Origin: Dehalococcoidia bacterium
GTDB lineage: Bacteria; Chloroflexota; Dehalococcoidia; Lucifugimonadales; CAUZJF01
Reading direction: 5' to 3'
Assembly: GCA_965237635.1 (NCBI GenBank)
Contig: CBDEFX010000002.1
Location: 402,554-466,553 of the forward strand
DNA length: 64,000 nucleotides
In this document: one piece after another, positions 12,819 through 30,183 of the stretch
How the letters are laid out: each line of letters begins with the position of its first letter
Numbering within the stretch: position 1 is the stretch's first letter
The notes under the pieces: model-generated
What the model was told of the DNA's origin: nothing
Seen by the model: the letters and a program-made list of their open reading frames with translations, nothing else
Databases searched by the model: none
Program-made: the position numbers and the translations under genes

Positions 12819-12832
12819 ACTCGCCGTCTGAC
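12819..12832 (-). other. Candidate attR of the 12.8-30.2 kb island
   Basis: Minus strand GTCAGACGGCGAGT matches the att left arm GTCAGACGGGGAGT at 39309 and 42960 at 13/14 positions. Confidence 0.5.
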
Positions 12833-13008
12833 TAAGAGACTGGGGGACAATGCCTTGACTGCCACAGGCTGAAGGCTGTCCTGGTGGGTGCGGGAGGCGT
12901 TGGAGCGGGAGCTACAGTCGGGTGCAGGCTCGGCTGCGGCCCGGCAACGGAAGCGCAACGACTCCCTGGAGGGTCGCATTGAGGGTGGGAAGGGAAGCTC
13001 CGAAGCGG

Positions 13009-13737
13009 TCACAGGGGAAGCGTCCGCCCTGCCTCCCGCAGGTGTCGGCGACGCTGCTGCGCATCCGGCATCGCCTTGGCCACCAGGCCCCAGAAGTCCG
13101 TCGAGTGGTTCTGATGGGTCAGGTGCGCCAACTCGTGGACGACGACGTATTCGATGAGGGCCTGCTCCAGCATCATGGTGCGCCAGTTGAAGCGCAGCGT
13201 GCCGTCGGGCGCGCAGCTGCCCCAGCGTTGGCGCTGGTCGCGGACGAGTATCTGCGACTTCTCTCCGCGACCGAGCCGGGGCCACCAAAGGTCAACAGCG
13301 TTCGGCAGCCGCTCGGCAGCCCGGTCCCGATACCATCCGACGACTGCACGGCGAATCGGCTCGTAGCGTTCGAGGCCGCTCAGGGTCTTCGGTACTGTGA
13401 CTCGGAAGCGCCAGTGGTCGAAGCGTACCATAGGCGAACGTATGTCCGCGGTATCGACGATCATGCGGACGTTGCGCCCCGAGTACGGCAGGGTCTCGCC
13501 GCTGACGAAGCGCTTCGGCGCGGCTTCCAGCATCTCCCCAGACGCATGGCTGAGGATCCAGGGCGCCCGCTTGCGAACGATGGCCCGTAGCTCGCTGTCC
13601 GGCGTCGTCATGGGTGCAGCAACCTGCACACCGCCACCGTCCGTCGTGATCTGGACCGTCTTCTTACGCCGTTCGCTGCGACGCACCTCGTAGTCTATGG
13701 CCGTGTTGCCGAAGCGGATACGGCCCCGTTCGTTCAC
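13009..13737 (-). CDS. M48/YgjP-like (DUF45) metalloprotease associated with type I R-M
   Basis: QRWGSC, LRFNWR, YVVVHELAHL; overlaps the hsdR stop. Confidence 0.88.
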   Translation of the reverse strand: MNERGRIRFGNTAIDYEVRRSERRKKTVQITTDGGGVQVAAPMTTPDSELRAIVRKRAPWILSHASGEMLEAAPKRFVSGETLPYSGRNVRMIVDTADIRSPMVRFDHWRFRVTVPKTLSGLERYEPIRRAVVGWYRDRAAERLPNAVDLWWPRLGRGEKSQILVRDQRQRWGSCAPDGTLRFNWRTMMLEQALIEYVVVHELAHLTHQNHSTDFWGLVAKAMPDAQQRRRHLREAGRTLPL

Positions 13738-16700
13738 TGCCCACTCCTCCGACGGGCCAGCTCGACGATCCGGTTCGTCAACTCCTCCAGCTGCTCTTCG
13801 GTGTAGTCGTCCGTGGGCCTGAGCTCCCGCTTGATGTCGCGGCGCATCTCCCGCAGGACCTCCAGATTCGACTGCCAGTCGACGACGGCGTTGTGGTGGT
13901 TGACCACCGACTCAACACTACGTGCGACGCGCTTGATCCCTTCGTCGAAGTGCGCCCGGTACGGAGTCTGCTCCTCGCCTATGGCCGAGTCGGTAGCTGG
14001 CTCATCTGAGCGGCCGTCGAGCAGTTCATAGATGGCGAAGGACACCGGAGACAGGCCATGTTCTGCGGCAATGTCAGCTTCGCTCTGAGCATGATGCCGT
14101 AGCAGAGCAAGGCGGCGGCATGCTTCCGCCGAGTCTATCAGCCGGTTCCGAAGGTCTTCGATGATGCGTGCAAGCTGCGCCGAGAGTTTCTCGAAGAACA
14201 CAGGGTTGTCGGCCAAGCGGTCATGTATCTGAGCCCGGATCGCGTGCTCCATGATCGAGGCACGGGCCTCGTCGTGCGGCAGTGCGGCGATCTTCTGCTC
14301 GAAGTCCTGGTCGAGTATCGACACCGGCCTCATTAGCTCCCGCACCTGGGCGCTTATGCGCTCGTCCACCAGCCTCTTTACCTTCGCCCCGATCTCTGTC
14401 CAGTCCGCGTCGGCGTCCTCGCGAAGGAACTGAGCCCGGACGTAGGCCCGTATCTCCGTGAGCCGCGCGAGCCGGTCCGTGTAGTCCAGTGCTCGCGGGT
14501 CGGGCAGGAAGCGGTCCATGAGGAGGGAGAACCGGCGGTAGTCCGCGTTGAACCGCTCGAACAGATCGGCCTTGAAGTTGCCCTCGGTCAAGGCGTCGGG
14601 AGCGAAGACGCTGACGCACGCCCAGGTATCCCTCAGGTCGCGGCTCTTGAAGTGGGATTCCGTCTGGACGGCGGCCGCCTCGATGACCGGTGCCGGGTCC
14701 TCGTCCATCTCGCGCATCGTGTCCTGCACGTCAGGCCAGTCGAAGGTCGAGAGCGCATCCTCCAGGTCTCGCGAGACGCCGTGGTAGTCGATGACCAGGC
14801 CATGGGTCTTGTCGGTGGGCACCCCGTCCTGCTCGTGAGAGAAGCGCCGGTTCACCCGGGCGATAGCCTGGAGCAGCCCGTGTTCCCGCAGCGCCCGGTC
14901 TAGGTACAGCGCCTGCTCCACCGGCGCGTCGAAGCCAGTAAGCAGCATGTCGACCACGACGAGCACCTCCGGCTCCCCCTCCGGATCGACGAAGGCGTTG
15001 ACGACCTGCTCCTGGTCGAGCTCGCGGGCCACCTTGAACTCCGGCCCGTCGTTGGGAGCAGCCGTGATGATGGGATAGGCGCGCAGTCCGAAGCTGTTCA
15101 GGCGCTCGGCGTAGCGCAGCGCGGCGGCCCGACTCGGCGCGACGATTTGCGCCTTGAACCCATTGGGCCGCACCTTCCCCTTGAAGTGCTCGGCGATGTC
15201 CAGGGAGATCATCTCGATGCGCCGCTCCGCCTCGGCGACCGTCTCCTTGTTGGCGTAGCGGCGACGAATCTGCGCCTGGACCTCGGGCGGCTCGTCGCCA
15301 AACATAGCCTCGTACAGCCTGTCCAGGGTCTCCGGCCCCTCGACGGCGAGCTCGGGCAGCCGCGCCTCGTACCAGATGGGCACAGTTGCGCCGTCGGCTA
15401 CCGACTGCGGGATGGTGTAGGCGTCGATGAGGGGACCGAAGCGCCCTATGGTGTTGCGCTTGAAGTCCTTTTCTATCGGCGTGCCGGTGAAGCCCACCAT
15501 CACCGCATTGGGCAGGGCCTTGGACATGCGCCCGCCGAGAATGCCGTACTGCGTGCGGTGGGCCTCGTCCACCATGACGATGACGTTCTCCGAGGCGTTG
15601 AGCACGTCAAGCTCGCCTTCGGGGGCCGTCAACGCCTCCGCGAACTTCTGGATGGTCGTCATCACCGTACGGCTGCCGCCTTCCTTTAGGACGCCCTGCA
15701 AGTCGAGAGGGTCGCGTTGATCCGGCCTTTGCATCCGGCGGCGCGCTCGGCGTTCGGGCCGCTCAGGGCGCGACCTGTCCATTCTCTCTGGCGCAGGAAA
15801 GCCGCAGCGCTCGAAGGTGCCGGCGATCTGCCGGTCCAACTGCCTCCGGTCAGTTGCCACCACGATGGTGGGATTGCTCAAGCGAGGCTCGCGGCGTAGC
15901 TTCGTCGCCAGCCACAGCATCGTCAGCGACTTGCCCGATCCCTGCGTGTGCCAGACAACGCCTCCCCGCTCCTCCGGCTTGCGGCCCGATAGGAGGCGGT
16001 CCAGGGCCGCACGGACGGCGCGGTACTGTTGGTAACGGGGCAGCTTCTTCACCAGCCGCCCCCGCTCCGGCTCGTAGACCACGTAGTCGCGGAGAATGTC
16101 CAGCAGGGTCGCCGGGGACAGCAGGCCCACGATGAGCTGCGCCTGTCCCTGCGGCTCGACGCGGAAGCGCTGCTGAACCTCATCCTCGGTGTACGGCAGC
16201 ACCGATTTCCACTCAAAGTAGGCGTTCTCCGGCGCGCCGAGGGTGGCGTAGGCTGAGGCGGCCCCGCAGTGGGCCACGCACAGCAAGTTGTAGTGGAACA
16301 GCTCCGGCGCGCCGCTGCCGTGCCACTCCGGTCCCGCCTCCTGGTAGCGACGAAGCTGGCGTACCGCCTGCGATCTCCATACGTCGAGCAGTGACGGAGA
16401 CTTGGCCTCCATCACCACCAAGGGGACGCCGTTGACGAACAGCACAAGATCGGGAATGACCATGCGCTCGTCGTCGTCAGCGCCGCCTCGCTCGTTGCCT
16501 CGCCGTACGCGGAACTGCGTTGTGACGACGAACTCGTTCAGGCCGCCCTCCGCTTGGTCGAAGTCGAAGAAGCGGACGGTGCGAGAGTCCCTGCCCCTCG
16601 GCCCGTCCACGGTCAGGGGCATCCCGTAGGTCAGGTACTCGTGGACCGACTGGTTGCGGGCCATGCCCGTGGAGTCGACGTGCTCCAGCTCAAAGACGGC

Positions 16701-16910
16701 TCGCTCCGCCTGCTCCTCCGTCATCCATTCGTTAAGCCGCATCAGCGCGGCCCGCAGCCGTCCCTTCAGCAGGACCTCCCGCTCATCGCCGCGCTCCGCC
16801 GCCAGCGCCTCGCGGGGCACGTAGGTCCACCCCAGACGCTCCAGCAGCAGCCGCGCCGGGTCCTCGGCGTGGTTGAACTCGTTGAGTTTGGAGGCGGTAA
16901 CCATTGTCAT
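13734..16910 (-). CDS. hsdR: Type I restriction endonuclease subunit R
   Basis: PDLVLFVNGVPLVVMEAK nuclease motif, HTQGSGKS, VDEAHR, GFTGTP, VVDMLLTGFDAP, QAIARVNR. Confidence 0.95.
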   Translation of the reverse strand: MTMVTASKLNEFNHAEDPARLLLERLGWTYVPREALAAERGDEREVLLKGRLRAALMRLNEWMTEEQAERAVFELEHVDSTGMARNQSVHEYLTYGMPLTVDGPRGRDSRTVRFFDFDQAEGGLNEFVVTTQFRVRRGNERGGADDDERMVIPDLVLFVNGVPLVVMEAKSPSLLDVWRSQAVRQLRRYQEAGPEWHGSGAPELFHYNLLCVAHCGAASAYATLGAPENAYFEWKSVLPYTEDEVQQRFRVEPQGQAQLIVGLLSPATLLDILRDYVVYEPERGRLVKKLPRYQQYRAVRAALDRLLSGRKPEERGGVVWHTQGSGKSLTMLWLATKLRREPRLSNPTIVVATDRRQLDRQIAGTFERCGFPAPERMDRSRPERPERRARRRMQRPDQRDPLDLQGVLKEGGSRTVMTTIQKFAEALTAPEGELDVLNASENVIVMVDEAHRTQYGILGGRMSKALPNAVMVGFTGTPIEKDFKRNTIGRFGPLIDAYTIPQSVADGATVPIWYEARLPELAVEGPETLDRLYEAMFGDEPPEVQAQIRRRYANKETVAEAERRIEMISLDIAEHFKGKVRPNGFKAQIVAPSRAAALRYAERLNSFGLRAYPIITAAPNDGPEFKVARELDQEQVVNAFVDPEGEPEVLVVVDMLLTGFDAPVEQALYLDRALREHGLLQAIARVNRRFSHEQDGVPTDKTHGLVIDYHGVSRDLEDALSTFDWPDVQDTMREMDEDPAPVIEAAAVQTESHFKSRDLRDTWACVSVFAPDALTEGNFKADLFERFNADYRRFSLLMDRFLPDPRALDYTDRLARLTEIRAYVRAQFLREDADADWTEIGAKVKRLVDERISAQVRELMRPVSILDQDFEQKIAALPHDEARASIMEHAIRAQIHDRLADNPVFFEKLSAQLARIIEDLRNRLIDSAEACRRLALLRHHAQSEADIAAEHGLSPVSFAIYELLDGRSDEPATDSAIGEEQTPYRAHFDEGIKRVARSVESVVNHHNAVVDWQSNLEVLREMRRDIKRELRPTDDYTEEQLEELTNRIVELARRRSGQ

Positions 16911-17815
16911 TACGAGAAGATCGCGATCGGGATTACCTGGATTGCTGGCCCCTGAATCTCAGTGGATGAATCTCCGGAATAACCCGGCTCGTTAGCAAAT
17001 TGGCTCATTGCTTCTTGAATGGTCGGCAAAAAGGTCCTAAATTGTCCAAGTGGGGTCTTCCTCAGAAGGTCGATGTTCTCGTCGTTGGGTTCTGGGATGA
17101 CGCGGCTAGCCTTACCGAAAACGCGGAATGTTCCGTCGATGACGTCATTCATCGTAGGATCATTGAAGTATTGCTGCTCCGTGGTGATGATCACATTAAT
17201 GTCACCGATTCTGGAGACGAGGTCCCGGGATTCACCACTTGTTAATGCTTTCACCAATGAGTTGACCTGCTTAAGCACAGTAGAGTTCGCGCTCTTGCCT
17301 TGCTTGCGCTGACGGGGACCCTTCGGTGCTGTCGGTTCTTCGAAGGCGCTCATTAGTGGAACAAGTTCAGCGAACGCCGATAATTGAACCAGAAATTGAT
17401 TCCGCCGAAGAGTCGCTTCAAATTCCACAAAGTCGCTGGGGCGAACCCCGCCAAGGCCGGATGGGTCTAATAGATCGGTCACCAGGCCACGATTACGCAA
17501 ATCTCTTCGCAGGCGAGCGAACAATGATGCCGGTGTATGGATAATTTCTTCCGTAGTGCTCTCACTCTGCGCCTGCCCCGTTTGTCGAGACCCACGTCCA
17601 CCGAATTTCATTCCAAACAAAGTGAGGTTGGCTCCAACCTGTGCTTCCCCAGAAACTTCTGTCGATTTCTCTCCAGAGGAAGTAGTCTGCACGGTTGAGA
17701 AGCGTGAGAATCCGTCTTCCAGTGTTGCAAGGATATCGAACGTCACTTGTTGATTCAGGTATAATGCAATAGGCAGGTCAGTGACAACGAGTTGGGATTC
17801 CTCTTTATTGGCCAT
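16910..17815 (-). CDS. Hypothetical protein (DUF6414-like) inside the hsd operon
   Basis: 301 aa; IALYLNQQVTFDILATLEDG start and IPIAIF end resemble DUF6414 as I recall it. Visibly more AT-rich than its neighbours. Confidence 0.65.
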   Translation of the reverse strand: MANKEESQLVVTDLPIALYLNQQVTFDILATLEDGFSRFSTVQTTSSGEKSTEVSGEAQVGANLTLFGMKFGGRGSRQTGQAQSESTTEEIIHTPASLFARLRRDLRNRGLVTDLLDPSGLGGVRPSDFVEFEATLRRNQFLVQLSAFAELVPLMSAFEEPTAPKGPRQRKQGKSANSTVLKQVNSLVKALTSGESRDLVSRIGDINVIITTEQQYFNDPTMNDVIDGTFRVFGKASRVIPEPNDENIDLLRKTPLGQFRTFLPTIQEAMSQFANEPGYSGDSSTEIQGPAIQVIPIAIFS

Positions 17816-19088
17816 GAATTCCCTTCCCCACTTCTACCCGCACACGCCCCGACAGCAGCGCGGCTGCGGTGGATGCCTTCAGTGACCGCAGTCGATTCCA
17901 CTCAGTCCTGTTCTCTTCGATAGCCTTGTGAAGAGACTTTCCAACATCGGCAATCGTGTTGCGCTCCGACGACGACGGGAAAGCAACCCGCGCATGGCTC
18001 ACGTTAATCAGACTCAGACCAGGCCTGGTCTGACCGTAAGCCATCCCTCTGAACTGGTTCTGACCAGCCAAGCCTCTTAAGAACTCGCAGGCAAAGTCAC
18101 TTAGCCCTGGGTCGTTGAGCCTCACTAGCGCCACATGCTGACTCACGTAAGCTTGGCATAGCGTGTCTCCTGCCACCGTTACCTTACCGGGTTCGCCGGT
18201 GATTGAAACAAGAAGGTCGCCCCTGTGGATGCGAGTTCGTGCGGCTTCGGCATCTACGGGGGGCTGAACAAAGATTGCGTCAGACCTATCAATCGTGCCA
18301 CCCGAAATGTTCTGACTCCGAACAAAGAACGCACCGTTGGGCCTGAAGTACTGGGACCATGCCCTTGAACCACTCGTGATAGTCTGTGCCACATCCTCCA
18401 GCCGCACCACCTCCCACCCCGCTGGTATCGTCCCAATGCCCGGCACATCCTTCCATTGGGTGTGCCAACCGGGGACGCCGCGGGTGAGCAGTTGGTGCAG
18501 CAGGGCGTTGCGCAGACATTCGGTGGCCGTGATGACCGCCTCCACACCCTCGATGGTCTCGTCGATGGAGTCCAGCACGGCGGCGATGGCCTGCTGCTCC
18601 GGCAGGGGCGGGAGGAGAAGTGGGAAAGCAAGGTAGCCAGCGTAGTCTAGGTTGCGGATGCCCGTAGTTTGATGCTGTAATCGTGTAGTTACCCCTTGCA
18701 AGTAGCGGTGCCAGAGTGCCCGGGCTACGTAGAAGGGGCTACAACGTGAAGCGTCCACCCGGAGGTGTTGACAGAAATTATTGCAGTACACGGGGCCGAA
18801 CCCATCTATTATCGCAACACGCCCGACGGGCGTTCCAGGACCGCCGCCACTCCGTTCTAGAATGAGGTCCCCATCGCGCATCAGTCGGCGTTCTCGGTCA
18901 CGATCTGAAAGTCGTCGCCATGCGGCAGCTTCCGGATTAACTCGACCATCCCTCGTAAGATCAGTGGCTCTGAGCACTCGTACGCCAGGATCGTCAGGTG
19001 ATGGCTCGTCCCCCCAAGCACCAGGTTGATTAAGGACCAAGATGTCCCCTAAGCGCACCACCTGCCATCCATCCGGCACTTGCATCAA
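17805..19088 (-). CDS. hsdS: Type I restriction specificity subunit S
   Basis: VPDGWQVVRLGD, two TRDs, central LPPLPEQQAIAAVLDSID...IPAGWEVVRLEDV, C-terminal LKAS...LLSG. Confidence 0.93.
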   Translation of the reverse strand: MMQVPDGWQVVRLGDILVLNQPGAWGDEPSPDDPGVRVLRATDLTRDGRVNPEAAAWRRLSDRDRERRLMRDGDLILERSGGGPGTPVGRVAIIDGFGPVYCNNFCQHLRVDASRCSPFYVARALWHRYLQGVTTRLQHQTTGIRNLDYAGYLAFPLLLPPLPEQQAIAAVLDSIDETIEGVEAVITATECLRNALLHQLLTRGVPGWHTQWKDVPGIGTIPAGWEVVRLEDVAQTITSGSRAWSQYFRPNGAFFVRSQNISGGTIDRSDAIFVQPPVDAEAARTRIHRGDLLVSITGEPGKVTVAGDTLCQAYVSQHVALVRLNDPGLSDFACEFLRGLAGQNQFRGMAYGQTRPGLSLINVSHARVAFPSSSERNTIADVGKSLHKAIEENRTEWNRLRSLKASTAAALLSGRVRVEVGKGIHGQ

Positions 19089-19444
19089 CTGCTCCGCTGG
19101 TCTCCACTGTCGGTGCCCCGCAGCGCATCAAGTGTCACCCCTCGGCCTGCCTGTTTCGCTTCGAGCCACCGCTGGAGAGACTTCTGACTCTCACTGGATG
19201 GCCTGCCCGCAAGCAACCCCTCCACGCTGACGTCCTCGTCTAGGTCGGGCCAGTGGATGCCCTGGCCTCCGCCTATGAGCCGCCAGTTGGCCTTCTCTTC
19301 CTCCGTGGCATTCACCAGCCTGGGGTACCAGGCCAACGGGACCGAGATGGTCCGGCCATCGGAAAGCTCGGCGGTCAACGTGTCCTCGGTGACAGTCACG
19401 TCTTCCGCATCCGGGACCCTTACCTCAACCATCGAAATATTCAT
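19085..19444 (-). CDS. DUF2442 protein (putative TA partner)
   Basis: LSDGRTISVPLAWYPRL...GQGIHWPDLDEDVSVEGLL. Confidence 0.88.
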   Translation of the reverse strand: MNISMVEVRVPDAEDVTVTEDTLTAELSDGRTISVPLAWYPRLVNATEEEKANWRLIGGGQGIHWPDLDEDVSVEGLLAGRPSSESQKSLQRWLEAKQAGRGVTLDALRGTDSGDQRSS

Positions 19445-19661
19445 GCCACGCCTCCACGAACAACGTTTGGTTCTCCCCAATTATCCTCGCAATTCGGCCT
19501 ATCTCAGAGCGCCTCAGTCCGCCGCTCCTCTGAAGCCTCACCGGGTCCAGCCAGAACTTGGCGACCCGGTCGTCACGCTCAACATGCACATGTAGCGGCT
19601 CCTCCCGGTCACTTGCATAGAAGAAGAAGCGATACGGCCCCTCTCTCAGTATCGTCGGCAT
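19425..19661 (-). CDS. DUF4160 protein (putative TA partner)
   Basis: MPTILREGPYRFFFYASDREEPLHVHVER...AKFWL...AWHEYF. Confidence 0.88.
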   Translation of the reverse strand: MPTILREGPYRFFFYASDREEPLHVHVERDDRVAKFWLDPVRLQRSGGLRRSEIGRIARIIGENQTLFVEAWHEYFDG

Positions 19662-19676
19662 CGCTCACCTGCGACC

Positions 19677-21206
19677 CTATCGGGCATATCCCAGCTCCGC
19701 GAGCAGTTCGTCCATCTTTGCCACCGCCTCGTCGCGCCGCCGCTCAGCATCCCGCAGCTGCGCCAAGGCGTCCTCGATGCTCATCACTTCCACGGGCTCG
19801 GTAGTGTCCACGTACCGGCTGATGTTCAGATTGAAGTCGTTGGCCCGCATCTCCTCCAGGTCTGCCACGTGGGCGAAGCGTTCCACGTCCTCGAAGGCGG
19901 TATACGCCTCGACGATCCTGGCGATGTGTTCCTTGTCGATATAGTTCCGCGCTTTGCCTTGCCGGAAGCTGCCCTCCTGCGCCGCGTCTACGAACAGCAC
20001 CTTGCCACGCCGCTCGGCGGGTTTGGCTTTGTTCAGTACGCAGATAGCAACGGGGATGCTGGCCCCGGAGAAGAGGTTGGGCGCCAGTCCGATGACCGCC
20101 TCGAACAGGTCGGCCTCCACGATGCCCTGGCGTATCTTCCCCTCCGCCCCGCCCCGGAACAGGATGCCGTGGGGCATCACGATTCCCACCATGCCCTGAG
20201 AGTTGATCACGCCGAGCATGTGCAGTAGGAAGGCGAGGTCACCCTTCGTCTTGGGCGGGATGGCGCCGTAGCGGTCGAAGCGGTGGTGCGGGTCGTTTGG
20301 CGCGAATTCGTGTCCCCAGTTCTTCAAGCTGAAGGGCGGATTGGCGATCAGCCGGTCGTAGGAGAGGAGGCGTCCCGTCCCGTCCACTAGGCCCGGCTCC
20401 GCGATGACGTCGCCGGGTTCCAGACGAGCGGCCCGCAGGCCGTGAAGCAGCAGGTTTAGCTTGCCGATGGCCAGGGTTCCCAGGTTGCGCTCTTGGCCAT
20501 GCAGCGCCAGGTCACGGAGGTCTCCGCCGTGTTCTTGCACGTACTGAGCAGTGTAGATGAGCATCCCGCCGGAGCCAGCGGTGGGGTCGCAGATACGCAT
20601 CCCCTCGCGTGGTTGAAGCAGCTCGATAATGAGGCGCACCACGGGGCGAGGCGTGTAGAACTCGCCGCCCTTCTTCCCAGCGTCGTCGGCGAACCTGTTT
20701 ATCAGGTACTCGTAGGCGTCGCCCAGCACGTTGCCGCCGCCTGCCGCGTCTTCCCGCAAGTTCTCGTCGCGCAGGTCCAGGCCGTCGAAGTGGTTGAGCA
20801 GGCCGCGGATGATGCGTTCACGGTTGGCCGGGCTGCCCAGCTTGGACTCGTCGTTCCAGTTGGTACCCGCCAGCACGCCGTCCAGCCTGGGAGTGTTAGC
20901 GTCCTCGATGGCGTGGCTGACGACGTTCAGGGTTTCGCCCAAGTTCATCGAGGCGGCAGCAATGGCCTCCCAGCGGGCCGATGCTGGGACGAAGAACTCG
21001 TGCTCGTCCCGGTCGTTGAGCGCCACGTCGCGGGCAACGCCCAGCGCGACGGCGTTCTCCACCTCCTCATCGAACCGGTCGGACAGCCGCTTAAGGAAGA
21101 GAATGGAGAAGATGTAGTTCTTGTAGTCGGCGGCGTCGATCTGTCCGCGCAGGATGTCGGCGGCCTGCCACAACTTCGACTCAAGCTCCTGCCTGGTCAA
21201 CGTCAT
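19677..21206 (-). CDS. hsdM: Type I restriction methyltransferase subunit M
   Basis: LWQAADILRG, GKKGGEFYTP, DPTAGSGG, ANPPF, MPHGILFRG. Confidence 0.95.
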   Translation of the reverse strand: MTLTRQELESKLWQAADILRGQIDAADYKNYIFSILFLKRLSDRFDEEVENAVALGVARDVALNDRDEHEFFVPASARWEAIAAASMNLGETLNVVSHAIEDANTPRLDGVLAGTNWNDESKLGSPANRERIIRGLLNHFDGLDLRDENLREDAAGGGNVLGDAYEYLINRFADDAGKKGGEFYTPRPVVRLIIELLQPREGMRICDPTAGSGGMLIYTAQYVQEHGGDLRDLALHGQERNLGTLAIGKLNLLLHGLRAARLEPGDVIAEPGLVDGTGRLLSYDRLIANPPFSLKNWGHEFAPNDPHHRFDRYGAIPPKTKGDLAFLLHMLGVINSQGMVGIVMPHGILFRGGAEGKIRQGIVEADLFEAVIGLAPNLFSGASIPVAICVLNKAKPAERRGKVLFVDAAQEGSFRQGKARNYIDKEHIARIVEAYTAFEDVERFAHVADLEEMRANDFNLNISRYVDTTEPVEVMSIEDALAQLRDAERRRDEAVAKMDELLAELGYAR

Positions 21207-21523: not shown

Positions 21524-21643
21524 CCTTCACGACGGCTGCGACTTCGGCGTGGTGCGCCAGGGTCTCGCCCTGCGGCGCAAGTCCTACATTGAATATACAA
21601 GCTCCAGTTCTCTCGATAGACTAGGTAGTGTTGACATTTCACG

Positions 21644-22450
21644 TTATTCCGCGCTCTCTATGATGCGCCGCTCTTCTGCTGCGACCGCTTTCCTGTCAAA
21701 CTCGATTCCAATCAGATCGCTCTTCAGATACGCCGCATCCCCTTGCCTACGTTCACACCAGAGCAGCAACGCTCCCTCCTCGGGCTTCATCCCCGGCACC
21801 TCGACTTTCCACGGTACAGCCCTCACGCCGACCCATGGCCTTTGCGTCACAACCATCGGTGGTAAGGCATAGGAATGCTCGCTCGGGATCAAGGAGAATC
21901 TGTTCTCCGGCGTCAGACGGATCAACCAGCGATTGAAAAGTGTCCCGATGTGGAAGTCATTGATCTCGTGAAACACCTTGAGCGAATCTGTAAGTTGATC
22001 CCCGCCCTGTTCCTCCCAGAGCGCTTGATTAGGTGTCTCAGGATCCCAGAACATGCCACGTGGCAACCAGACGTTGAGCTGCATGTATTTCACAGTTCGG
22101 TCGCCTCGATTCTGGACCTTCCAATATAGGTGGATCGGCCAAGTCAGGCTTGCTGAGATATGGGGCAGAACGTCCGTTCCTTCGGAGTTCGTGGTGGCTT
22201 GAACATGGATAAAAGATTCTACTCTGTTGGCGACATGAGCCTCGGTGGCCTCCAACTCCGCCTCCGATCCAATCACTCGGGCTTGATTTCGTCTGATGAT
22301 GTTGCCGACGGTGCCCTTATCTAGGCTGTAGTCGAACTCGGCTTCCACCTTCTGAGCGATCACTCGATAGCTCAGATCCGGGGCATTTCGTTTCGTATCG
22401 ATTATGAATTCCCTGATATTGCTCGGGGTTTTTTTTCCTTGCTGACCCAA
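21644..22450 (-). CDS. Hypothetical protein with a possible N-terminal HTH
   Basis: 268 aa; LSYRVIAQKVEAEFDYSLDKGTVGNIIRR is HTH-like. Confidence 0.6.
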   Translation of the reverse strand: MGQQGKKTPSNIREFIIDTKRNAPDLSYRVIAQKVEAEFDYSLDKGTVGNIIRRNQARVIGSEAELEATEAHVANRVESFIHVQATTNSEGTDVLPHISASLTWPIHLYWKVQNRGDRTVKYMQLNVWLPRGMFWDPETPNQALWEEQGGDQLTDSLKVFHEINDFHIGTLFNRWLIRLTPENRFSLIPSEHSYALPPMVVTQRPWVGVRAVPWKVEVPGMKPEEGALLLWCERRQGDAAYLKSDLIGIEFDRKAVAAEERRIIESAE

Positions 22451-22546
22451 CGCGCTCTGCCTTCTTGTGATTCACCGGGGAAACTCGGTGAAAGTCGATG
22501 AATGTCTGCAACGTAAGCGCAAGCCGCCCGAAATGGGGAATCTTAA

Positions 22547-24265
22547 CCCGAATCCACCGAAGGAGGGCGTCGGGTTAGCGTCCTGAGGCGGCAAGAAGGC
22601 GCTCCTGTGCTTCTGGGATAATGGTTTTGTAGCAAAAAAACGACCCCGGAAAAGGAGCACCCAGTAGATGCTGCCACGCAACCACCCCGACCGGATCCAA
22701 ATCACCTTCGACGACCGCCGCTTGGTGGCCAATGCCGGGCTGCTCCTTCCGGCCACCCTGGCGCGGCACCTCGGCCTGCCCGAACTCGTCCGGCAGCGCC
22801 TCGACCTGGGCGATGCCCCGGGGCGGGCGAACACGAGCGACAAGATGATGACGCTGGTGGCGTCTGCGCTGGCTGGGGGCGACTGCATTGACGACGCCGA
22901 TGTGTTGCGCACCGGGGGGACGGCCTGCACCCTGGGCGGCACGGTCAAGGCGCCATCCACCCTGGGCACCTTCCTGCGCAGCTTCCGGTGGGGCCACGTC
23001 CGTCAACTCGACCGGGTGAGCCGCGAGTTGCTGGCCCGGGCTTGGCAGGCCGGGGCGGGACCCGGCGACGGGCCCCTGACCATTGACCTGGACTCCACCA
23101 TCTGCGAGACCTACGGACTGGCCAAGGAGGGCGCCCGCCACCACGGCTATACCGGCAAGCGGGGCTACCACCCGCTGCTGGCCATCGCCGCCGGCACCGG
23201 AGACGTGCTGATGTCCCGGCTGCGCGAGGGCCGGGCCAACACCGCCCGCGGCGCCGCCCACTTCCTGCGGGAGACGGTGGGACGGGTGCGCTACGCCGGG
23301 GCCAACGGACGACTCACGCTACGGGCCGACAGCGGGTTCTACACTCATGGCGTGGTATCCGTCTGCCGCAAGATGGATGTCCGCTTCTCCATCACCATCC
23401 GCCAGCACAAAAGCCTGCACAATCTCATCGAGGCGATACCCGAAGATGCCTGGACGCCGATTCCTTACTGGATGGACGGTGCCGCCGATGTGGCCGAGAC
23501 CACCTGCACCCCCTTCCAGGCCGAGGCGGACGCCGCGCCGGTACGGCTCATCGTCCGGCGGGTGAAGCCGACGCCCGGTTCCCAACTGGCCCTCTTCGCC
23601 AAATACAGCTATCATGGCTTCATCACCGACCGAGACGGGGAGTTGCTCGAACTGGAGGCTGACCATCGCCGCCACGCCGAGATCGAGAATACCATACGCG
23701 ACCTCAAGTACGGCGTCGGGCTGAACCATCTCCCCTCGGGCCGCTTCGCCGCCAACGGCGCCTGGCTGGCCGTCCAGACGATGGCCCACAACCTGGCCCG
23801 CTGGACGGCGCGGATCGGTCTGGGAGAGCGGATAGCCACCACCAAAACCCTCCGGCGGCGGTTCTTCTCCCTGGCCGGACGGCTCACCCGCTCGGCACGC
23901 CGGTTGACCCTGCATCTTCCGGATCGCTGGCCTTGGGCTGAGAAGTTCAGCCGCGCCTTGGCCCGGCTGCGAGCCATTCCACTCCCGGCCTGACGGCACC
24001 GTCGGCGACCGACCCACCCACCGGACAACCGAAGATCCCCGCAGACTCGTGCCAGCCCGGTCCGAGAGAGTTCCCTGCTGCGTATTCTCTCGCCATCCCG
24101 CGCATCGCAGCTCCCGCAGACGGCCATAGGGGCCCCTGTGCGGCGATGAAGACCGTCCGCCGACCTCCCTACCCCAAATGGAACCCAGGCTATTTCCCCT
24201 GTAGCTCCCTCACCCCCCTTCCGCTTTCCTCACGCCGTCCATCGGTGTCCTTCGGTGGATTCGGG
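22547..24265 (+). mobile_element. IS1380-family element, copy 2
   Basis: Same IRs as copy 1; TSD CTTAA at 22542-22546 and 24266-24270. Confidence 0.93.
22668..23993 (+). CDS. IS1380-family transposase
   Basis: 441 aa, same motifs as 11176-12501. Confidence 0.93.
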   Translation: MLPRNHPDRIQITFDDRRLVANAGLLLPATLARHLGLPELVRQRLDLGDAPGRANTSDKMMTLVASALAGGDCIDDADVLRTGGTACTLGGTVKAPSTLGTFLRSFRWGHVRQLDRVSRELLARAWQAGAGPGDGPLTIDLDSTICETYGLAKEGARHHGYTGKRGYHPLLAIAAGTGDVLMSRLREGRANTARGAAHFLRETVGRVRYAGANGRLTLRADSGFYTHGVVSVCRKMDVRFSITIRQHKSLHNLIEAIPEDAWTPIPYWMDGAADVAETTCTPFQAEADAAPVRLIVRRVKPTPGSQLALFAKYSYHGFITDRDGELLELEADHRRHAEIENTIRDLKYGVGLNHLPSGRFAANGAWLAVQTMAHNLARWTARIGLGERIATTKTLRRRFFSLAGRLTRSARRLTLHLPDRWPWAEKFSRALARLRAIPLPA

Positions 24266-24941
24266 CTTAACGAAAGGCCCCAGGATGTCCCAGTATACGC
24301 CCATGGCGGGAGAACAAGGACCGACCGAACCGATGCCAGGTGGCCTGAATCCGGAGGATCGCCATCTCTGAGGTGCTCTGTCCGCTCCGAGGCGACAAAT
24401 CGACAGCCGGGGTTTTACTCGGGCATGCTCCTTGTGTCTAGTCGATGGAAGTCTGCGGGGCATCTCTCTTCCAGGCGCTGGACCGCTACCAGCGATATCA
24501 GGGCAGAGGATTGTGTTGCCCGGGGGCCGTGTAGATGGGGCTCGTGACATCCTTCAAGGAATTCTTGAAAAAACGCGGTGACCGCGCGGGCAGGCCTCAT
24601 ATAAGTGTAAGGAATATATGGGAAACGAATGTTCTAGACGATTCCTTCGACTCGCCGGCTTCCGAGTACGCGACTTCGGAGGGTGGGTGGTCCGAGGAAA
24701 TGCGGAAGAATCGCCAGACCGAGCTGCGGTACCGTCGATGGGGCCGTGGATCTGGTAGCCAAAAGGGGCGAAGTCAGGGTGAGCACTCTCGTAAACGGCG
24801 GGGCCGAGGTACACGAGTGCTCGACGTCTGCAACGGAGAAATAGCTGGCCAAACTCACTTCGGAGTTCGGACCTCTAAACACGACGGTAAACAGCGAGGG
24901 ACGCAACGTGGTCGTTCTCAGCGAGACAAACGAGTACGGAG

Positions 24942-25676
24942 ATGAAGAGGACAGTCTTGATTCCTGAGTCGATGGGCGTCGCGAGTGAGGGAGCCAGCAT
25001 GGCCTCGTTCCACGAGGCAGGGCCCGGTGCGAGTCCGAGGGCGACGCTCCAAGCGATTCGGGTGGGTCCCATAGCTCAGTCGATCGCCAAGCCGCTGATC
25101 GTAAATGGGCACTACCTGCACAGCTATCCGGGTGGCACGAAGCTTGCCTTCGGTGCGTTTCTCGGGAGTGCCCTCCTGGGTGTGCTGACGCTTGGCGTAG
25201 GTCCGAAGCTAGGCTATCAACTCGTCGCAGGAGCCAAGCCGGAAGACTGCGTGACACTTACTCGTCTCTGGCTCTCCGACCGGTTGCCGCGGAACAGCGA
25301 GTCGCGGGTGCTGGGGATCGTGCTTCGTGCGTTGAAGCGGCACACGTCTCTTAAGTTTGTCCTTGCCTACGCCGACCCATCCGTAGGGCACGTGGGAACC
25401 ATCTATCAGGCCAGCGGCTGGTCTTATTCGGGAATTTCGGCAGCCATGCCTATGTACGACCTGGGCGACGGCGTTCCTCGCCACAGTCGAAGCCTCGCCT
25501 ACATGTTCGGGACCCATTCTCAGCGACACTTCGCGACCAACGGAGTCTCGCTGAGACCCCTGCCGCAGCCGGGAAAGCATCGCTACGTCTATTTCCTAGA
25601 TCGTGAGTGCACTCGTCGATTGAATGCGCGAGTTCTGCCATATCCGAAGAAGGAGGACGTTATTGAGGGTCGTTGA
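24942..25676 (+). CDS. mom: Mom-family (GNAT-like) DNA adenine modification protein
   Basis: HYLHS, LTRLWLSDRLPRNSESR, YADPSVGHVGTIYQASGW, KHRYVYFL, recognised as Mom-like motifs; sits next to a ParB-like gene. Confidence 0.8.
   Translation: MKRTVLIPESMGVASEGASMASFHEAGPGASPRATLQAIRVGPIAQSIAKPLIVNGHYLHSYPGGTKLAFGAFLGSALLGVLTLGVGPKLGYQLVAGAKPEDCVTLTRLWLSDRLPRNSESRVLGIVLRALKRHTSLKFVLAYADPSVGHVGTIYQASGWSYSGISAAMPMYDLGDGVPRHSRSLAYMFGTHSQRHFATNGVSLRPLPQPGKHRYVYFLDRECTRRLNARVLPYPKKEDVIEGR
24976..25051 (+). ncRNA. tRNA-Gly(UCC)-like element, non-canonical, overlapping the mom 5' end
   Basis: 76 nt. Acceptor GCGTCGC/GCGACGC + U73 + CCA; D stem GTG/CAT; anticodon stem GCCTC/GAGGC with loop GT-TCC-AC; T stem CCCGG/CCG(A)GG with loop TGCGAGT. 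Confidence 0.8.
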
Positions 25677-26295
25677 TCTACCAGTTGGGAGCCTCAGGGA
25701 GGCGGCCTGGAACCCGAACGCGATGGAACCACCCATGGTCGCAAAACTCCGCATGAGCATCGCCCGGTTCGGCTTAGTCGGGAACCTGGTGGTGCGGCGT
25801 GTGTACGTTGACCGATACGAGGTCATCGGCGGCAACCAACGTCTCCAGGTGTTGAAAGAGATGGGCGTGAAGCAGGTCCCATGCGTGGTCCTTGATCTGG
25901 ACGATGCCGAAGCTCGCCTGCTAGCTCAGGCCCTGAACCACGTAGAGGGCGTCGACAACGCGGGGCTCAAGGCCGAGCTGGTGAAAGAGGTGCTCAAGTC
26001 CATCCCCCGGTCCGAAGTGTTGGCAGTCCTGCCCGAGACCGAGGATGGACTCAGTGTCCTGGAGTCTCTCGGTGAAGCGGACCTCGCGGAGCACCTGCGG
26101 GCATGGGAGCAGGCCCAGGCCGCACGGCTTCGCCATTTCACGGCGCAGCTGTCGGCGAGCCAGCTCGAGGTAGTGGAGGAGGCGATGGAGCGGGCCGCGT
26201 CGGGAACCGGCGCCGATCCCTCGAACCCAAACCAGCGTGGCAACGCCCTCTACCACCTGTGCCAGGAATACCTGGAGAGGAGTCCAACGCCATGA
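25663..26295 (+). CDS. ParB/Srx N-terminal domain protein
   Basis: WNPNAM...LRMSIARFGLVGNLVVR...YEVIGGNQRL. TTG start behind GGAGG, overlapping the mom end. Confidence 0.85.
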   Translation: MRVVDLPVGSLREAAWNPNAMEPPMVAKLRMSIARFGLVGNLVVRRVYVDRYEVIGGNQRLQVLKEMGVKQVPCVVLDLDDAEARLLAQALNHVEGVDNAGLKAELVKEVLKSIPRSEVLAVLPETEDGLSVLESLGEADLAEHLRAWEQAQAARLRHFTAQLSASQLEVVEEAMERAASGTGADPSNPNQRGNALYHLCQEYLERSPTP

Positions 26296-26519
26296 AAAAG
26301 CTGCCATGCCCGGTCTGCTCGGAGACCCTGTCCGTACGCCTAGCCACCGGGCGCAAGTCTGGCAAGCCCTTCGTGATGCTGGTCTGTCCGATCGATGGCA
26401 GACACATCCGCGCCTTCGTCTCCGACCGGGACTTTGTATCCAGCGTCATCGAGAAGGCGGGTATACGCGAACCAGTGTCTAAGCCAGTCCCAACGGGTAG
26501 GACGGGGACGGAAGGGTAG
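26292..26519 (+). CDS. Small Zn-ribbon protein
   Basis: CPVC...CPIDGRH; ATGA overlap with the ParB-like gene. Confidence 0.7.
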   Translation: MKKLPCPVCSETLSVRLATGRKSGKPFVMLVCPIDGRHIRAFVSDRDFVSSVIEKAGIREPVSKPVPTGRTGTEG

Positions 26520-26530
26520 GGACTCCCGCG

Positions 26531-27499
26531 GTGGAAGCATATAAACAACTAAAACTCAGACAGAGGGAAGCACGCATCGCGGCGACCTTGCCCGCCACCA
26601 TTGGAGAAGATGCCATCACTGCCACCGCGCCCATAAGGGAGATAACGACGGGGCTGTCTACCAGGCTGGGCCTGGTGCAGACGGCACTGTCGATGGTGCT
26701 CGAGGGGCGGACCAGGGCCACGGTGACAGAGGTGACCGATCGGGCCGCTGACGACTTCGAGGTATTCATCTTGCCGTCAGTGGGAGGTCAGATCTTCAGT
26801 GATTTGGGAGTCCGGCGCGTCAGTGTCCATGGCCAGCGCCGGCTGATCCTGGAAGCTGAGTCTCTGCAGGCTGTCCACGATGACCTGGTAGGGCAGATGG
26901 AGAGGCTGAAACCTCAGGTTGAGGCAGCGGCGGAAAAGTTCGAGAGGTCGACCGAGACGGTGCAGGTGTTGGAAGGGCGGATGAGCAGGATCTACCAGCG
27001 TGCTAGCCACGAGAAGGAATTGAGGGCGTTCATCATCAAGTACGAGCAAGAGGGCAGGGGGGCCAACGAATGGCAGTCGCGGTACGACGGGCTCAAGGCC
27101 CGCATCCAGCGAGGAGAGGAGTTGAAGGCGGCCTGCCAGGAGCTGGAAGCAAAGATAGCGGAGCTGGGCTCCCCTGAGGAGATGCAGAAGGTATTGGAGG
27201 AGAAGCTTCGGGACCATGAGAGCCGTATGGAGGAGCTAGCCAAACGCGATGAAGCCCTGGAGAAATCGGGACGCGACGTGGACCGCAAGGAAGCGGCTCT
27301 TGAGAAGAAGCTAGAGGAGCTGGATCAGAGGGAGCGGGCTCTTTTGGGCAGGTTCTTCAAGTACAACGTTCGCGAAGGCGTGGTCGAGACAGGCGAGGTC
27401 AAGAAGGAACTGAAGGAAAGGAAGAAGGAACTGGCCCGTCTGGACCGTGAGCTGGGGAAGAAGCGTGGCATGCTGGCCCGGCTGCGAGGGAAGGACTGA
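26531..27499 (+). CDS. Hypothetical protein with a long C-terminal coiled coil
   Basis: 322 aa; E/K/L/R-rich heptads over the last ~200 aa; stop overlaps the resolvase start. Confidence 0.7.
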   Translation: MEAYKQLKLRQREARIAATLPATIGEDAITATAPIREITTGLSTRLGLVQTALSMVLEGRTRATVTEVTDRAADDFEVFILPSVGGQIFSDLGVRRVSVHGQRRLILEAESLQAVHDDLVGQMERLKPQVEAAAEKFERSTETVQVLEGRMSRIYQRASHEKELRAFIIKYEQEGRGANEWQSRYDGLKARIQRGEELKAACQELEAKIAELGSPEEMQKVLEEKLRDHESRMEELAKRDEALEKSGRDVDRKEAALEKKLEELDQRERALLGRFFKYNVREGVVETGEVKKELKERKKELARLDRELGKKRGMLARLRGKD

Positions 27500-28110
27500 T
27501 GCGCGTCGGTCTCTACGCCAGAGTCTCCACCTTGGACAAGGACCAGGACCCCGAGACGCAGCTCGTGGCACTGCGAGAGTTCGTTCGGGCCCAGGGTTGG
27601 GAGATTTTCCGCGAGTACGTGGACCACGCCCCTGCGCGAGACCTGACCCATCGGACGGCCTGGCGCGAGCTACTGGACGACGCGGCCAGGAAGCGATTCA
27701 AGACGGTGGTGGTCTTCAGGCTGGACCGGGCCTTTCGGTCGGTCAAGGACATGCACGACACGCTGGCTACGTGGGAGCTGTTGGGGATCGCTTTCAAGAG
27801 CGTGCGAGAGCAGTTCGACACAGGGACGGCTGTGGGAAGACTGCTGCTGAACCTTCTGGCGGCGGTGGCAGAGTTCGAGTTGGAGCTGATCCGCGAGCGT
27901 GTGAAGGCGGGGATGGACAGGGCTCGCCGACAGGGCAAGCGGATAGGGCGTCCCAGGGTAACGGACCGGCGAGGCTTCGATCGTCGTTTTGGAGCTATTT
28001 TGGAGCGCCTAAGCTCGGGAGAACTATCGAGACGTAAGGCGGCGTTTGAACTGGGTATCGGCTATGCAACGCTCAAACGCCTGATCGACGCACAAGAGTC
28101 GGCTGGCTAG
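27499..28110 (+). CDS. Small serine recombinase (resolvase/invertase) with C-terminal HTH
   Basis: GLYARVST, QDPETQ, VVVFRLDRAFRS, FELELIRERVKAGMDRAR..GKRIGRP. Confidence 0.93.
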   Translation: MRVGLYARVSTLDKDQDPETQLVALREFVRAQGWEIFREYVDHAPARDLTHRTAWRELLDDAARKRFKTVVVFRLDRAFRSVKDMHDTLATWELLGIAFKSVREQFDTGTAVGRLLLNLLAAVAEFELELIRERVKAGMDRARRQGKRIGRPRVTDRRGFDRRFGAILERLSSGELSRRKAAFELGIGYATLKRLIDAQESAG

Positions 28111-28161
28111 GTGGCTGCCTTGGAAACGCCTGTACATCCACAAAACGTGCCTCAAAACGGG

Positions 28162-28188
28162 TTGACGTGTATACGTTCCCGTATACAC
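28162..28188 (+). promoter_or_regulatory. Promoter with overlapping palindromic operator upstream of the large recombinase
   Basis: TTGACG-16 bp-TACACT; perfect IR GTGTATACG-ttcc-CGTATACAC (28167-28188); conserved at 58124-58150. Confidence 0.6.
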
Positions 28189-28319
28189 TGTACCGCCACA
28201 AATCCAGGTGCTGTCAAATACGGTGAGACAGACCTCATCATGATCGATAACTTCCTTGAGACACTTGCCAATGCGGCCATGGCCGTTGCAGCCCGCAGGC
28301 CGAACGACGAGGACGAAGA

Positions 28320-29936
28320 ATGAGCGACGCGAACTCCAAGAGAGCTGTGGCCTACCTCAGGGTATCGTCTATCTCACAGGTGGACGGGCACTCTCTGAAC
28401 GCCCAGGAGCGGCTCTTCAATCAGTTGTGTGAGAGCCGAGGGTGGGCGGCCGTCAGGGTCTATCGGGAAGAGGGCCAGTCGGCCCACTCGGAGTCGGTGA
28501 AGAAGCGCCCTATCTTCCGCCAACTGATGGAGGACGCCAGGAGGGATCAATTCGATATCGTCGTAGTCCATACCCTTGACCGATGGTCTCGCAACCTCAG
28601 GGTCACCCTGGAGTCGCTGGCCAACCTGGGCATGCACAACGTCGCTCTCGTCTCCATCACCGAGAACATCGACTACTCGACCCCTGAGGGGATGTTGACG
28701 ACTCAACTTCTGGGGTCCTTCGCCCAGTTCTTCTCCAACATGCTTGGCACTCACGTAAGCAAGGGTCTGGATGAGAGGGCCAATGAGGGCAGACACACCG
28801 GCGGCATCCCGTTCGGATACGAATCCTGCTGGATGAGCCAGGACGGAGAGCGCAGGCGCAGATGCCCAAAAGAGCATTCCGGGGGCGTTCATCTTATTGC
28901 GTCCGAGGTTGCCGCGGTCCGGGAGATGTTCAAACGGTACTCAACGGGATCGACCACACTAAGCCAGCTCGCCGCGTGGCTGAACGCGAGCGGCTTACGG
29001 ACTCGCAACACCAAGCAGCTGGCAGGCGCTGATGGCAAGCTCTCGCCCGGTCCGAAGCTATTTACCACTGCCTCAGTGAGGGGCATCCTCCATAACGCTT
29101 TCTACTCGGGTCTTGTCAGGCACAGGAAGCAACTCCGACCGGGAGCCCACGAGCCAGTCGTCGGCCAGGAGCTCTTCGATCTGGTCCAGGACAAGATGCG
29201 GCACAACAGCGGCAGATCAACGACCCTGAGCCCTCACCCTCACCCTGAGCGTGACTATCTTCTGAAAGGGATCATCCGTTGCGCCTACTGCAAGATGCCG
29301 ATGTGGGCACAGACCTATAAAAGCGGAAGAAGGTACTACCGTGAGCACAGGGAGTCTCGCAGTAACACCCAATGCCCAGCTCACGGCGGCTCGATACCGT
29401 GCCGCCTGGCGGATGAGCAGGTCGGAAGGATCGTCGAGGCCATCGAGCTGGGACCTGCATGGCAAGAGCAGCTCCTCTCGATAATCAGCGCCAGGGACGA
29501 GGTCGAAGTAGTCCAAGCCAAGCGGCGAAAGGTCCAGGAGAGGCTTCGGAGACTCGCCAAGACCTATGTCGATGGAGTTTATGATGACCAGGAGTATAAG
29601 CGGCAGAAGCGGAACCTGGAGATGGAGCTCGAGTCCCTCGTTGTGCCAAAGGCTGCCGCAGCCGCAGAGGCGGGGAAGCTGATAGAGAGGCTGCCTGAGC
29701 TATGGGCTGGAGCCAACATGGAAGAGCGTCGGAAGCTGTTGGTGGCCATGCTGGACGCCGTTTACGTTGACACGAAAGACGCCCGTTCGGTCGTCGCCAT
29801 CAAGCCCAAAGCTCCGTTCAGGCCAGTCTTCCATCTGGCAACCACCCGTGCCGGCTCCGGCGTATCTCTTACGCCTGGTTCTGACCGGAAACAACAGGAA
29901 CGTACCGAGCGCGTGTTCGAGGCCGCCTTCTCATAG
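28320..29936 (+). CDS. Large serine recombinase (integrase) with Zn-ribbon domain, copy 1
   Basis: AYLRVSS, VVHTLDRWSRN, GGIPFGY, ILHNAFYSG, HEPVV, LLKGIIRCAYC, coiled coil. Confidence 0.93.
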   Translation: MSDANSKRAVAYLRVSSISQVDGHSLNAQERLFNQLCESRGWAAVRVYREEGQSAHSESVKKRPIFRQLMEDARRDQFDIVVVHTLDRWSRNLRVTLESLANLGMHNVALVSITENIDYSTPEGMLTTQLLGSFAQFFSNMLGTHVSKGLDERANEGRHTGGIPFGYESCWMSQDGERRRRCPKEHSGGVHLIASEVAAVREMFKRYSTGSTTLSQLAAWLNASGLRTRNTKQLAGADGKLSPGPKLFTTASVRGILHNAFYSGLVRHRKQLRPGAHEPVVGQELFDLVQDKMRHNSGRSTTLSPHPHPERDYLLKGIIRCAYCKMPMWAQTYKSGRRYYREHRESRSNTQCPAHGGSIPCRLADEQVGRIVEAIELGPAWQEQLLSIISARDEVEVVQAKRRKVQERLRRLAKTYVDGVYDDQEYKRQKRNLEMELESLVVPKAAAAAEAGKLIERLPELWAGANMEERRKLLVAMLDAVYVDTKDARSVVAIKPKAPFRPVFHLATTRAGSGVSLTPGSDRKQQERTERVFEAAFS

Positions 29937-30153
29937 CTGCGGCTCGGTCCTGTCCGTTCCACCCGCCATAGCGAAGCACCGCCCCAGCCTGCTGTTCCGC
30001 ACCTGCTATAGTACCTATGCTCCAAAAGGGGGTCGGCTTGCGTCGTAGCTACCACGAGGCGTAATGTCAGCCGTACCAAAAGGACTTGGTTTTGCTACAC
30101 TCGGCGCCGTCGACGTGAGTCGCTTACTAGAGGCTGACTGATCCCCGTGTTCG

Positions 30154-30183
30154 TGGTGGAGACGGGGGAGGGCCTAACTCCAC
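30154..30183 (-). other. attL-like site with a tmRNA-3'-end-like arm
   Basis: Minus strand GTGGAGTT-AGGCCCTCCCCCGTCTCCACCA; the same arm recurs at 39323, 42975 and 56143. Confidence 0.7.

Follow-up and report, generated by a model that had tools for sequence, protein, structure and literature searches.

A truncated ssrA island and a separate type I restriction-modification cassette, a probable mosaic in a sponge-associated Dehalococcoidia genome

A serine recombinase inserts the ssrA islands of Dehalococcoides into the transfer-messenger RNA (tmRNA) gene ssrA, with crossover in its T-loop, and the integration module of these islands codes for DsiB (540 aa), DsiA (200 aa), ParB and Mom (PMC3146451). 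Each island brings its own substitute for the ssrA 3′ end, and successive insertions yield tandem arrays with junctions between an island end and a repeat (PMC3146451). Similar ssrA-associated islands have been reported in Dehalogenimonas (PMC13390414). Here we analyzed a 64,000-nucleotide stretch (hereafter the window; ~60% GC) of contig CBDEFX010000002.1 from a Dehalococcoidia bacterium, in which an earlier note had proposed that positions 12819-30183 are a single 17.4-kb island that a serine recombinase placed in a secondary attB other than ssrA, its attR lying at 12819 and its attL at 30183. Our comparisons indicate that this interval is probably a mosaic of a truncated ssrA island and a separate type I restriction-modification (R-M) cassette, not one island. 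The first piece, 21652-30183, interrupted by an insertion sequence (IS) at 22547-24265, would be the recombinase end of a Dehalococcoides-type ssrA island, comprising from the attachment (att) site inward a 19-20-nt ssrA repeat, DsiB-like and DsiA-like recombinases, conserved open reading frames (ORFs), ParB and Mom. Its non-ssrA junction may have arisen when the recombinase acted on a pseudo-site or at one end of a neighboring island, and the cut in a backbone gene would have left it without a distal att site and incapable of precise excision. The second piece, 12871-21628, would be an R-M cassette with limits of its own, fused to the truncated island via a 27-nt remnant of a high-copy repeat by an IS-type or illegitimate rearrangement. 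The motif at 12819 would travel with the R-M cassette in the ygjP-DUF4238 intergenic region and would not have been created by island insertion.

The integration module of the window is that of the Dehalococcoides-type ssrA islands, a family that is already known; on this point the earlier note was right. Read from the att site, both show one succession of genes, for recombinases of ~540 and ~200 aa, small ORFs, a ParB-domain protein and Mom, and both use the repeat CCCTCCCCCGTCTCCACCA: the published Dehalococcoides direct-repeat primer TGGTGGAGACGGGGGAGGG is the exact reverse complement of this 19-mer (PMC3146451). Also shared are crossover in the tmRNA T-loop, tandem junctions of island end and repeat, and near-identical copies at real ssrA genes. 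The latter are L054, which is 98.6% identical to the window over 24266-30181, and L051; in both, the same island arm is joined to a real tmRNA gene. The genes for Mom, ParB, the small recombinase and the large recombinase abut, in this order, the tmRNA 3′ end in a Dehalogenimonas genome (L042) and in two Dehalococcoidia metagenome-assembled genomes (MAGs; L041 and L043), where that end reads ...GGACGGGGAGTTCGAC(T/C)CTCCCCCGTCTCCACCA. The 538-aa recombinase shares 57% identity with its tmRNA-adjacent homologue in L042 and is distantly similar to the TP901-1 and A118 integrases. An identical Mom protein is found on 24 metagenome contigs from several samples.

The window copy nevertheless departs from the Dehalococcoides islands in several respects. 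Its host belongs to a high-GC, sponge-associated Dehalococcoidia lineage, and it lies away from ssrA, since neither ARAGORN nor Rfam detected any tRNA or tmRNA gene in the window. Whereas the Dehalococcoides islands carry a tRNA-like locus in the 5′ part of mom, none was found in the window copy (ARAGORN; Rfam with E up to 1 over 24300-25400). As a separate observation, a tRNA-Val gene at 2723-2796 of an Actinomycetota MAG contig (L044) overlaps the start of the match to a Mom homologue, which recalls this tRNA-like locus. While the dsiB reading frame extends across the att site in Dehalococcoides, that of the window stops at 29936, ~200 nt short; the 619-624-aa recombinase ORFs of five relatives (L046, L047, L049, L052 and L053) do cross the repeat. 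The window copy also lacks the ~700-aa ORF beyond mom, and the nearby cargo consists of defense genes, not reductive dehalogenase genes.

The right-hand arm, 30140-30183 on the minus strand, is a genuine att site, as had been claimed. The core GGCCCTCCCCCGTCTCCACCA occurs four times in the window (at 30154 on the minus strand and at 39325, 42976 and 56144 on the plus strand) compared to zero copies expected, and the island-side half, 30140-30172, is identical in the ssrA-joined copy L054. The arm at 30154 is inverted relative to the other three, in agreement with the opposite orientation noted earlier. Likewise, the claim that no tmRNA gene adjoins this end stands, and a search for a tmRNA remnant at 30100-30700 returned none (Rfam, E up to 10). 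A decayed tmRNA gene beside 30183 was rejected on this result and on that of blastn with a word size of 7, which found just a 70%-similar copy of the recombinase-downstream stretch 400 nt further along, at 30428-30497, suggesting older island debris. The partner arm at 30173-30190 differs from the two arms that are joined to the same island elsewhere, namely that of ssrA (GGACGGGGAGTTCGAC) and the common one of island ends (AAGTGTAGGTAGG). It is present only in its own genome (L045), has no relatives among the species-representative genomes and resembles the other arms solely in its inner 9-12 nt. This arm may be a pseudo-attB or may belong to the end of another island.

Comparison of the junctions of this island set the register of the crossover. 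The island joined to the ssrA arm reads ...GGAGTTCGAC/CCTCCCCC (shorter form ...GGAGTTCGAC/CCTCC), the slash marking the joint; joined to the 30183 arm it reads ...GGTGGAGTTAGG/CCCTCCCCC (...GGAGTTAGG/CCCTCC), and joined to the arm at 56142, ...AAGTGTAGGTAGG/CCCTCCCCC (...GTAGGTAGG/CCCTCC). Since one island is found with three partner arms, the crossover must lie at or to the right of CCCT, where island-derived sequence starts, in agreement with the published insertion point (PMC3146451). The arm at 56121-56141 (CGTGTTCCAAGTGTAG...) mirrors the island outer arm (...CTCCACCACGAACACG) at 13/16 positions and recurs with more than 1 kb of conserved flank in many contigs, twice within one MAG contig. 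We read this arm as the distal end of an island of the ssrA-island family, in which case the site at 56142 would be a tandem island/island junction, as predicted by the accretion model of PMC3146451. The site at 39309 is an island-end arm followed by the ssrA repeat, that is, an inter-island or attR-type junction, and not the attP of the element ending at 30183. As a further observation on att sites, CTGTGTGCGAAGTGTGGACGG/GCCCTCCCCCGTCTCCACCA followed by GATCTAAAGGGCC recurs in SAR202/Dehalococcoidia MAGs (L003, L004, L005, L008, L011, L012 and L016), sometimes twice per contig, ~2.5 kb apart, and without a tmRNA gene nearby; these sites resemble what would be expected of the distal junctions that related islands form in marine SAR202.

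The opposite limit of the island lies at 21652. Nine island copies (L046-L049 and L051-L055) match the window solely over 21652-22547 and 24266-29831/30181, and homology to all of them stops at 21652, inside a conserved 275-aa backbone gene. In L054 and most other copies, the shared backbone runs on for more than 1 kb past the equivalent position, where the window enters the R-M block. The canonical sequence is dominant before 21652 in four sequencing runs, and the join specific to the window has a depth of roughly 16-20 in run X8, close to that of the right flank. The filler GTAGTGTTGACATTTCACGTTATTCCG at this join is the end of a very high-copy repeat (depth of 6000-7600 compared to ~215 for the backbone in the source metagenomes), pointing to a transposon-type or illegitimate join. 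Word depth over a ~35-nt stretch within 21618-21659 (..GTAGTGTTGACATTTCACGTTATTCCG..) reaches 6000-7600 in four sponge-associated runs compared to 10-215 around it; in other contexts the stretch continues as TTTTCCTTGTCATTGCGAGTGAAGC, and it probably marks one end of a small mobile element of very high abundance. No sequence resembling the ssrA repeat, allowing up to 5/19 mismatches, was found in 12000-24500; the window copy differs from the Dehalococcoides islands in lacking a distal repeat as well as in the truncation of its backbone. The gap at 22547-24265 is a simple IS-B insertion with a 5-bp target duplication (TTAAG) on either side, across which the relatives are contiguous. An inversion of the module by this copy and the inverted, 99%-identical IS-B copy at 31018-32748 was rejected because each keeps its own 5-bp target duplication (TTAAG and CTTAC, respectively).

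The R-M block has a distribution of its own. In five relatives (L019-L023, 91-96% identity), homology covers just 12871 to 21522/21628, with different sequence on both sides. Together with L018, the closest relative, the block occurs without the island backbone in six related genomes, and no backbone gene lies next to it in any of these six loci. The match between L018 and the window includes 12819 and extends to 12655-12657, where IS-A is inserted; L018 then continues into a DUF4238-like gene and the D5-primase and ParB-methylase genes, and on the hsdM side it diverges from the window at 21522 and contains no island genes. The proposed 17.4-kb unit hence falls apart into 21652-30181, shared among island copies, and 12871-21628, shared separately. 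The R-M operon, Mom, ParB and two serine recombinases do fall within 12819-30183, as the earlier note had listed; the interval also holds the IS at 22547-24265, YgjP, DUF6414, DUF2442 and the truncated backbone gene.

The left boundary proposed at 12819 did not withstand comparison with L018, which has this stretch unrecombined and without the island backbone, a result that the earlier note had itself named as refuting. At the motif position L018 reads TTAGTCAGATGGCGAGT, and its arm stretch, GTCAGATGGCGAG, is uninterrupted but more diverged. The quoted sequences were found at their places (on the minus strand, GTCAGACGGCGAGT at 12819-12832 and AGTTAGGCCCTCCCCCGTCTCCACCA at 30154-30179; GTCAGACGGGGAGTTAGGCCCT at 39309), and the 21/22 agreement of the rebuilt attP with the 39309 site holds by construction alone: to the 12/13 positions of the left side it adds 9/9 contributed by a repeat that is in any case genuine. 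The left 13-mer with at most one mismatch is at chance level, with 0.30 hits expected per window. Extending the query to TTTGTCAGACGGGGAGT gave 15/17 positions at 12819-12835, reached in 0/100 shuffles, while one comparable chance-looking hit in ~0.9 Mb of related loci corresponds to ~0.05-0.1 expected per window; the match is of borderline significance. The five inner positions of the motif (AGCTG) mismatch every arm (TTAGG or TTTGG), such that the match stops 5 nt before the crossover point. Correspondingly, the joint GAGT/TAGG of the earlier note falls ~5 nt to the left of the leftmost possible crossover deduced from PMC3146451 and the arm comparison. Neither the reconstructed attP nor the empty attB finds support. 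In no comparison is 12819 a recombination joint; the nearest homology break is at 12871, and unitigs of runs X7 and X8 cross 12819 without a branch. In Logan contigs from four runs (12300-13500, 29950-30650 and 21450-21850), no joint linking the proposed ends was found, although short unitigs cannot resolve the repeat-rich att core, which reaches depths in the thousands in these sponge data. Searching the species-representative genomes for the empty site (..GGCTGTGGTGGAGT/AGCTGCCGAATGC..) returned only chance hits in unrelated phyla. We regard the 12819 motif as a chance match, or at most, with low likelihood, as the worn relic of an older island end, and not as a current boundary.

Several observations weigh against the mosaic. 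L018 reaches just 2.2 kb beyond hsdM, its contig ending 1.4 kb further, and only 7 kb separate the R-M block of L019 from an arm of the island-end type. The ssrA-island family carries defense cargo, as in the segment 42976-56141, which holds GmrSD, an MmeI-like enzyme and MazF; together with the arm in L019, this suggests that the R-M cassette could once have been island cargo. The 17-nt match at 12819 is hard to obtain by chance given the shuffles, lies just outside the operon and has the orientation that a single island needs. The distal end assigned to the island family is a putative one, L054 being interrupted by an IS at its position 1039. Finally, the species-representative genomes yielded no relative whose right flank is empty.

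One alternative is that 12819 is the decayed distal arm, of the TTTGTCAGACGGGGAGTT type, of an older island with R-M cargo that was later fused to the recombinase end of a different, younger copy. The shuffles, the use of the same arm type at the ends of two other segments of the window (39306 and 42957), the defense cargo of the family and the conserved position of the motif in L018 all speak for such a relic. Yet no ssrA repeat follows the motif, the match ends short of the crossover, the sequence upstream of the 17-mer bears no resemblance to the other arms, ~0.05-0.1 chance hits per window are expected empirically, and the R-M cassette of five relatives ends 35 nt before the motif and gives way to different sequence. 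We consider this scenario unlikely. Distinctly unlikely is that the ssrA islands of sponge-associated Dehalococcoidia have loosened DsiB-type targeting, with 30173-30190 as a pseudo-site insertion and 12819 as a worn distal junction; if true, the islands would spread as multi-copy carriers of defense cargo outside the tmRNA locus. Assembly or movement of 12658-33403 by the two direct copies of IS-A would account for the bracketing of the R-M block, the island piece and a lipoprotein gene by 99.8%-identical elements, and for the location of copy 1 at a synteny break relative to L018. We judge it very improbable: the flanking triplets match in no combination (ATC/GTG and ATG/CCA) and form no target duplication, copy 1 is itself disrupted by IS-B, and the internal junction at 21628-21652 is left unexplained. 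A single island spanning 12819-30183 is extremely improbable in spite of its left motif (12/13, or 15/17 when extended), its real right half-site, the lack of an adjacent tmRNA gene and interval edges just outside coherent gene modules, because nine other copies place a backbone gene across 21652, six relatives carry the R-M block without the island, L018 keeps the 12819 stretch intact, the joint misses the crossover region with all five inner arm positions mismatched, the distal end lacks an ssrA repeat, the species-representative genomes yielded no empty site, and the flank depths in run X8 are unequal (52 on the left compared to 15.8 on the right).

A mosaic built around an ssrA-island recombinase end, the reading that we favor, can be set beside two further systems. 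SCCmec (CcrA/CcrB), whose analogy with ssrA islands was drawn in PMC3146451, likewise pairs two serine recombinases, a large DNA-binding one and one encoded by a second, smaller gene, inserts into an essential single-copy gene at its 3′ end and forms tandem or composite arrays. It differs in target (rlmH/orfX compared to ssrA), host phylum and accessory genes (Mom and ParB), the likeness noted here being one of architecture. The large serine integrases of phages (A118/LI and TP901-1) share the Resolvase catalytic, Recombinase and zinc ribbon domains and att arms that are imperfect inverted repeats, as in CGTGTTCCAAGTGTAG ... CTCCACCACGAACACG at 56125-56172. However, sequence similarity is just distant (E = 1e-4 to 1e-12), and the islands of the window lack phage structural genes and form chromosomal tandem arrays.

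Self-comparison revealed that the window is an IS-rich mosaic in which the recombinase region 27841-30183 is repeated in inverted orientation at 56135-59840. This second copy of the recombinase end (56142-59903, 98-99% identical, opposite orientation) contains an IS256-like element at 58203-59563 and is truncated in the small recombinase gene, of which residues 94-203 are left. The adjoining gene at 61382-63991 on the minus strand codes for an 869-aa DUF499 protein that is possibly also defense-related. The segment 42976-56141 is a better candidate for a two-ended island. Its left boundary is an island-side att half (42976-43004), behind which come 140 nt of recombinase-downstream sequence and then a DDE transposase; its right boundary is the common island-end arm at 56121-56141. 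Like the "cis-mobilizable" islands of PMC3146451, it is devoid of an integration module; it encodes GmrSD, Fic, a split MmeI-like enzyme and MazF. The ORF at 43395-44753 behind the 42976 site was rejected as a recombinase and codes for a DDE transposase instead. A Tex-like 723-aa gene (40264-42435) is flanked by 191-nt inverted repeats (39914-40104 and 42777-42967, 94% identical), both of which end in the arm motif GGTCA(C/G)TT(A/G)TTTG.., also present ahead of the ssrA repeats at 39309 and 42960.

The features of the locus are compiled in Table 1. The two IS-A copies share 99.8% identity and lie in direct orientation. The region 7407-12657 is a nest of ISs in which an IS256-like element, interrupted by a second one (7477-8847), abuts IS-A with IS-B inside. 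On the right flank, the lipoprotein encoded from 30545 is rich in proline and threonine and contains a perfect 132-nt tandem duplication (30631-30894); no relatives of it were found among species-representative genomes. A group II intron catalytic domain was detected by Rfam at 37231-37332 on the minus strand (62.6 bits).

Table 1. Coordinates of features in and around the interval 12819-30183 of the window.
Feature	Position	Strand	Remarks
IS-A (IS3-like), copy 1	9627-12657	-	Interrupted by IS-B copy 10922-12622; cuts DUF4238-like gene
IS-B (DDE_Tnp_1_4 element), copies	10922-12622, 22547-24265, 31018-32748
ygjP-DUF4238 intergenic stretch plus first 8 nt of DUF4238-like gene	12658-12870	-	Common to L018 only; holds the claimed arm
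Motif TTAGTCAGACGGCGAGT	12819-12835	-	15/17 match to island-end arm at 39306 and 42957
Type I R-M cassette	12871-21628	-	Pfam
YgjP	13009-13737	-	Pfam
HsdR	13734-16910	-	Pfam
DUF6414	16910-17815	-	Pfam
HsdS	17805-19088	-	Pfam
DUF2442	19085-19480	-	Pfam
HsdM	19677-21206	-	Pfam
Small ORF of R-M cassette	21203-21523	-
Filler GTAGTGTTGACATTTCACGTTATTCCG, 27 nt	21625-21651		Between R-M block and truncated island; unique in window
Island backbone gene	21644-22450	-	275 aa in relatives; last 9 codons replaced in window
IS-B	22547-24265	+	441-aa transposase, DDE_Tnp_1_4; simple insertion into island backbone
Mom-family protein, 244 aa	24942-25676	+	Pfam Mom, E = 3e-54
ParB N-terminal domain protein	25624-26295	+	Likely start near 25663, giving 210 aa as in relatives
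Conserved backbone ORF, 322 aa	26531-27499	+	No Pfam family
DsiA-like small serine recombinase, 203 aa	27499-28110	+	Pfam Resolvase; syntenic in L041-L043 and L046-L055
DsiB-like large serine recombinase, 538 aa	28320-29936	+	Pfam Resolvase, Recombinase and Zn_ribbon_recom
Island-side att half	30140-30172	-	19-nt ssrA 3′-end repeat CCCTCCCCCGTCTCCACCA (30154-30172) plus outer arm CGAACACGGGGATC
Partner arm GCTGTGGTGGAGTTAGG	30173-30190	-	Not ssrA; pseudo-attB or end of another island
Lipoprotein gene start, right flank	30545-31017	+	Signal peptide and lipobox; interrupted by IS-B
IS-B, copy c	31018-32748		Target duplication CTTAC; cuts lipoprotein gene
IS-A, copy 2	33407-34729		Direct orientation relative to copy 1

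A short half-site match beside the edge of a gene module is insufficient to define an island boundary; in this case, related copies shifted the real limit by 9 kb. The non-ssrA junction at 30183 offers a concrete substrate for probing how strict DsiB and DsiA are in their choice of target. With this locus, high-GC, sponge-associated Dehalococcoidia join the hosts of the Dehalococcoides/Dehalogenimonas ssrA-island family, which is abundant in them; there the island lies beside defense genes rather than dehalogenase genes and has been heavily reshaped by insertion sequences.

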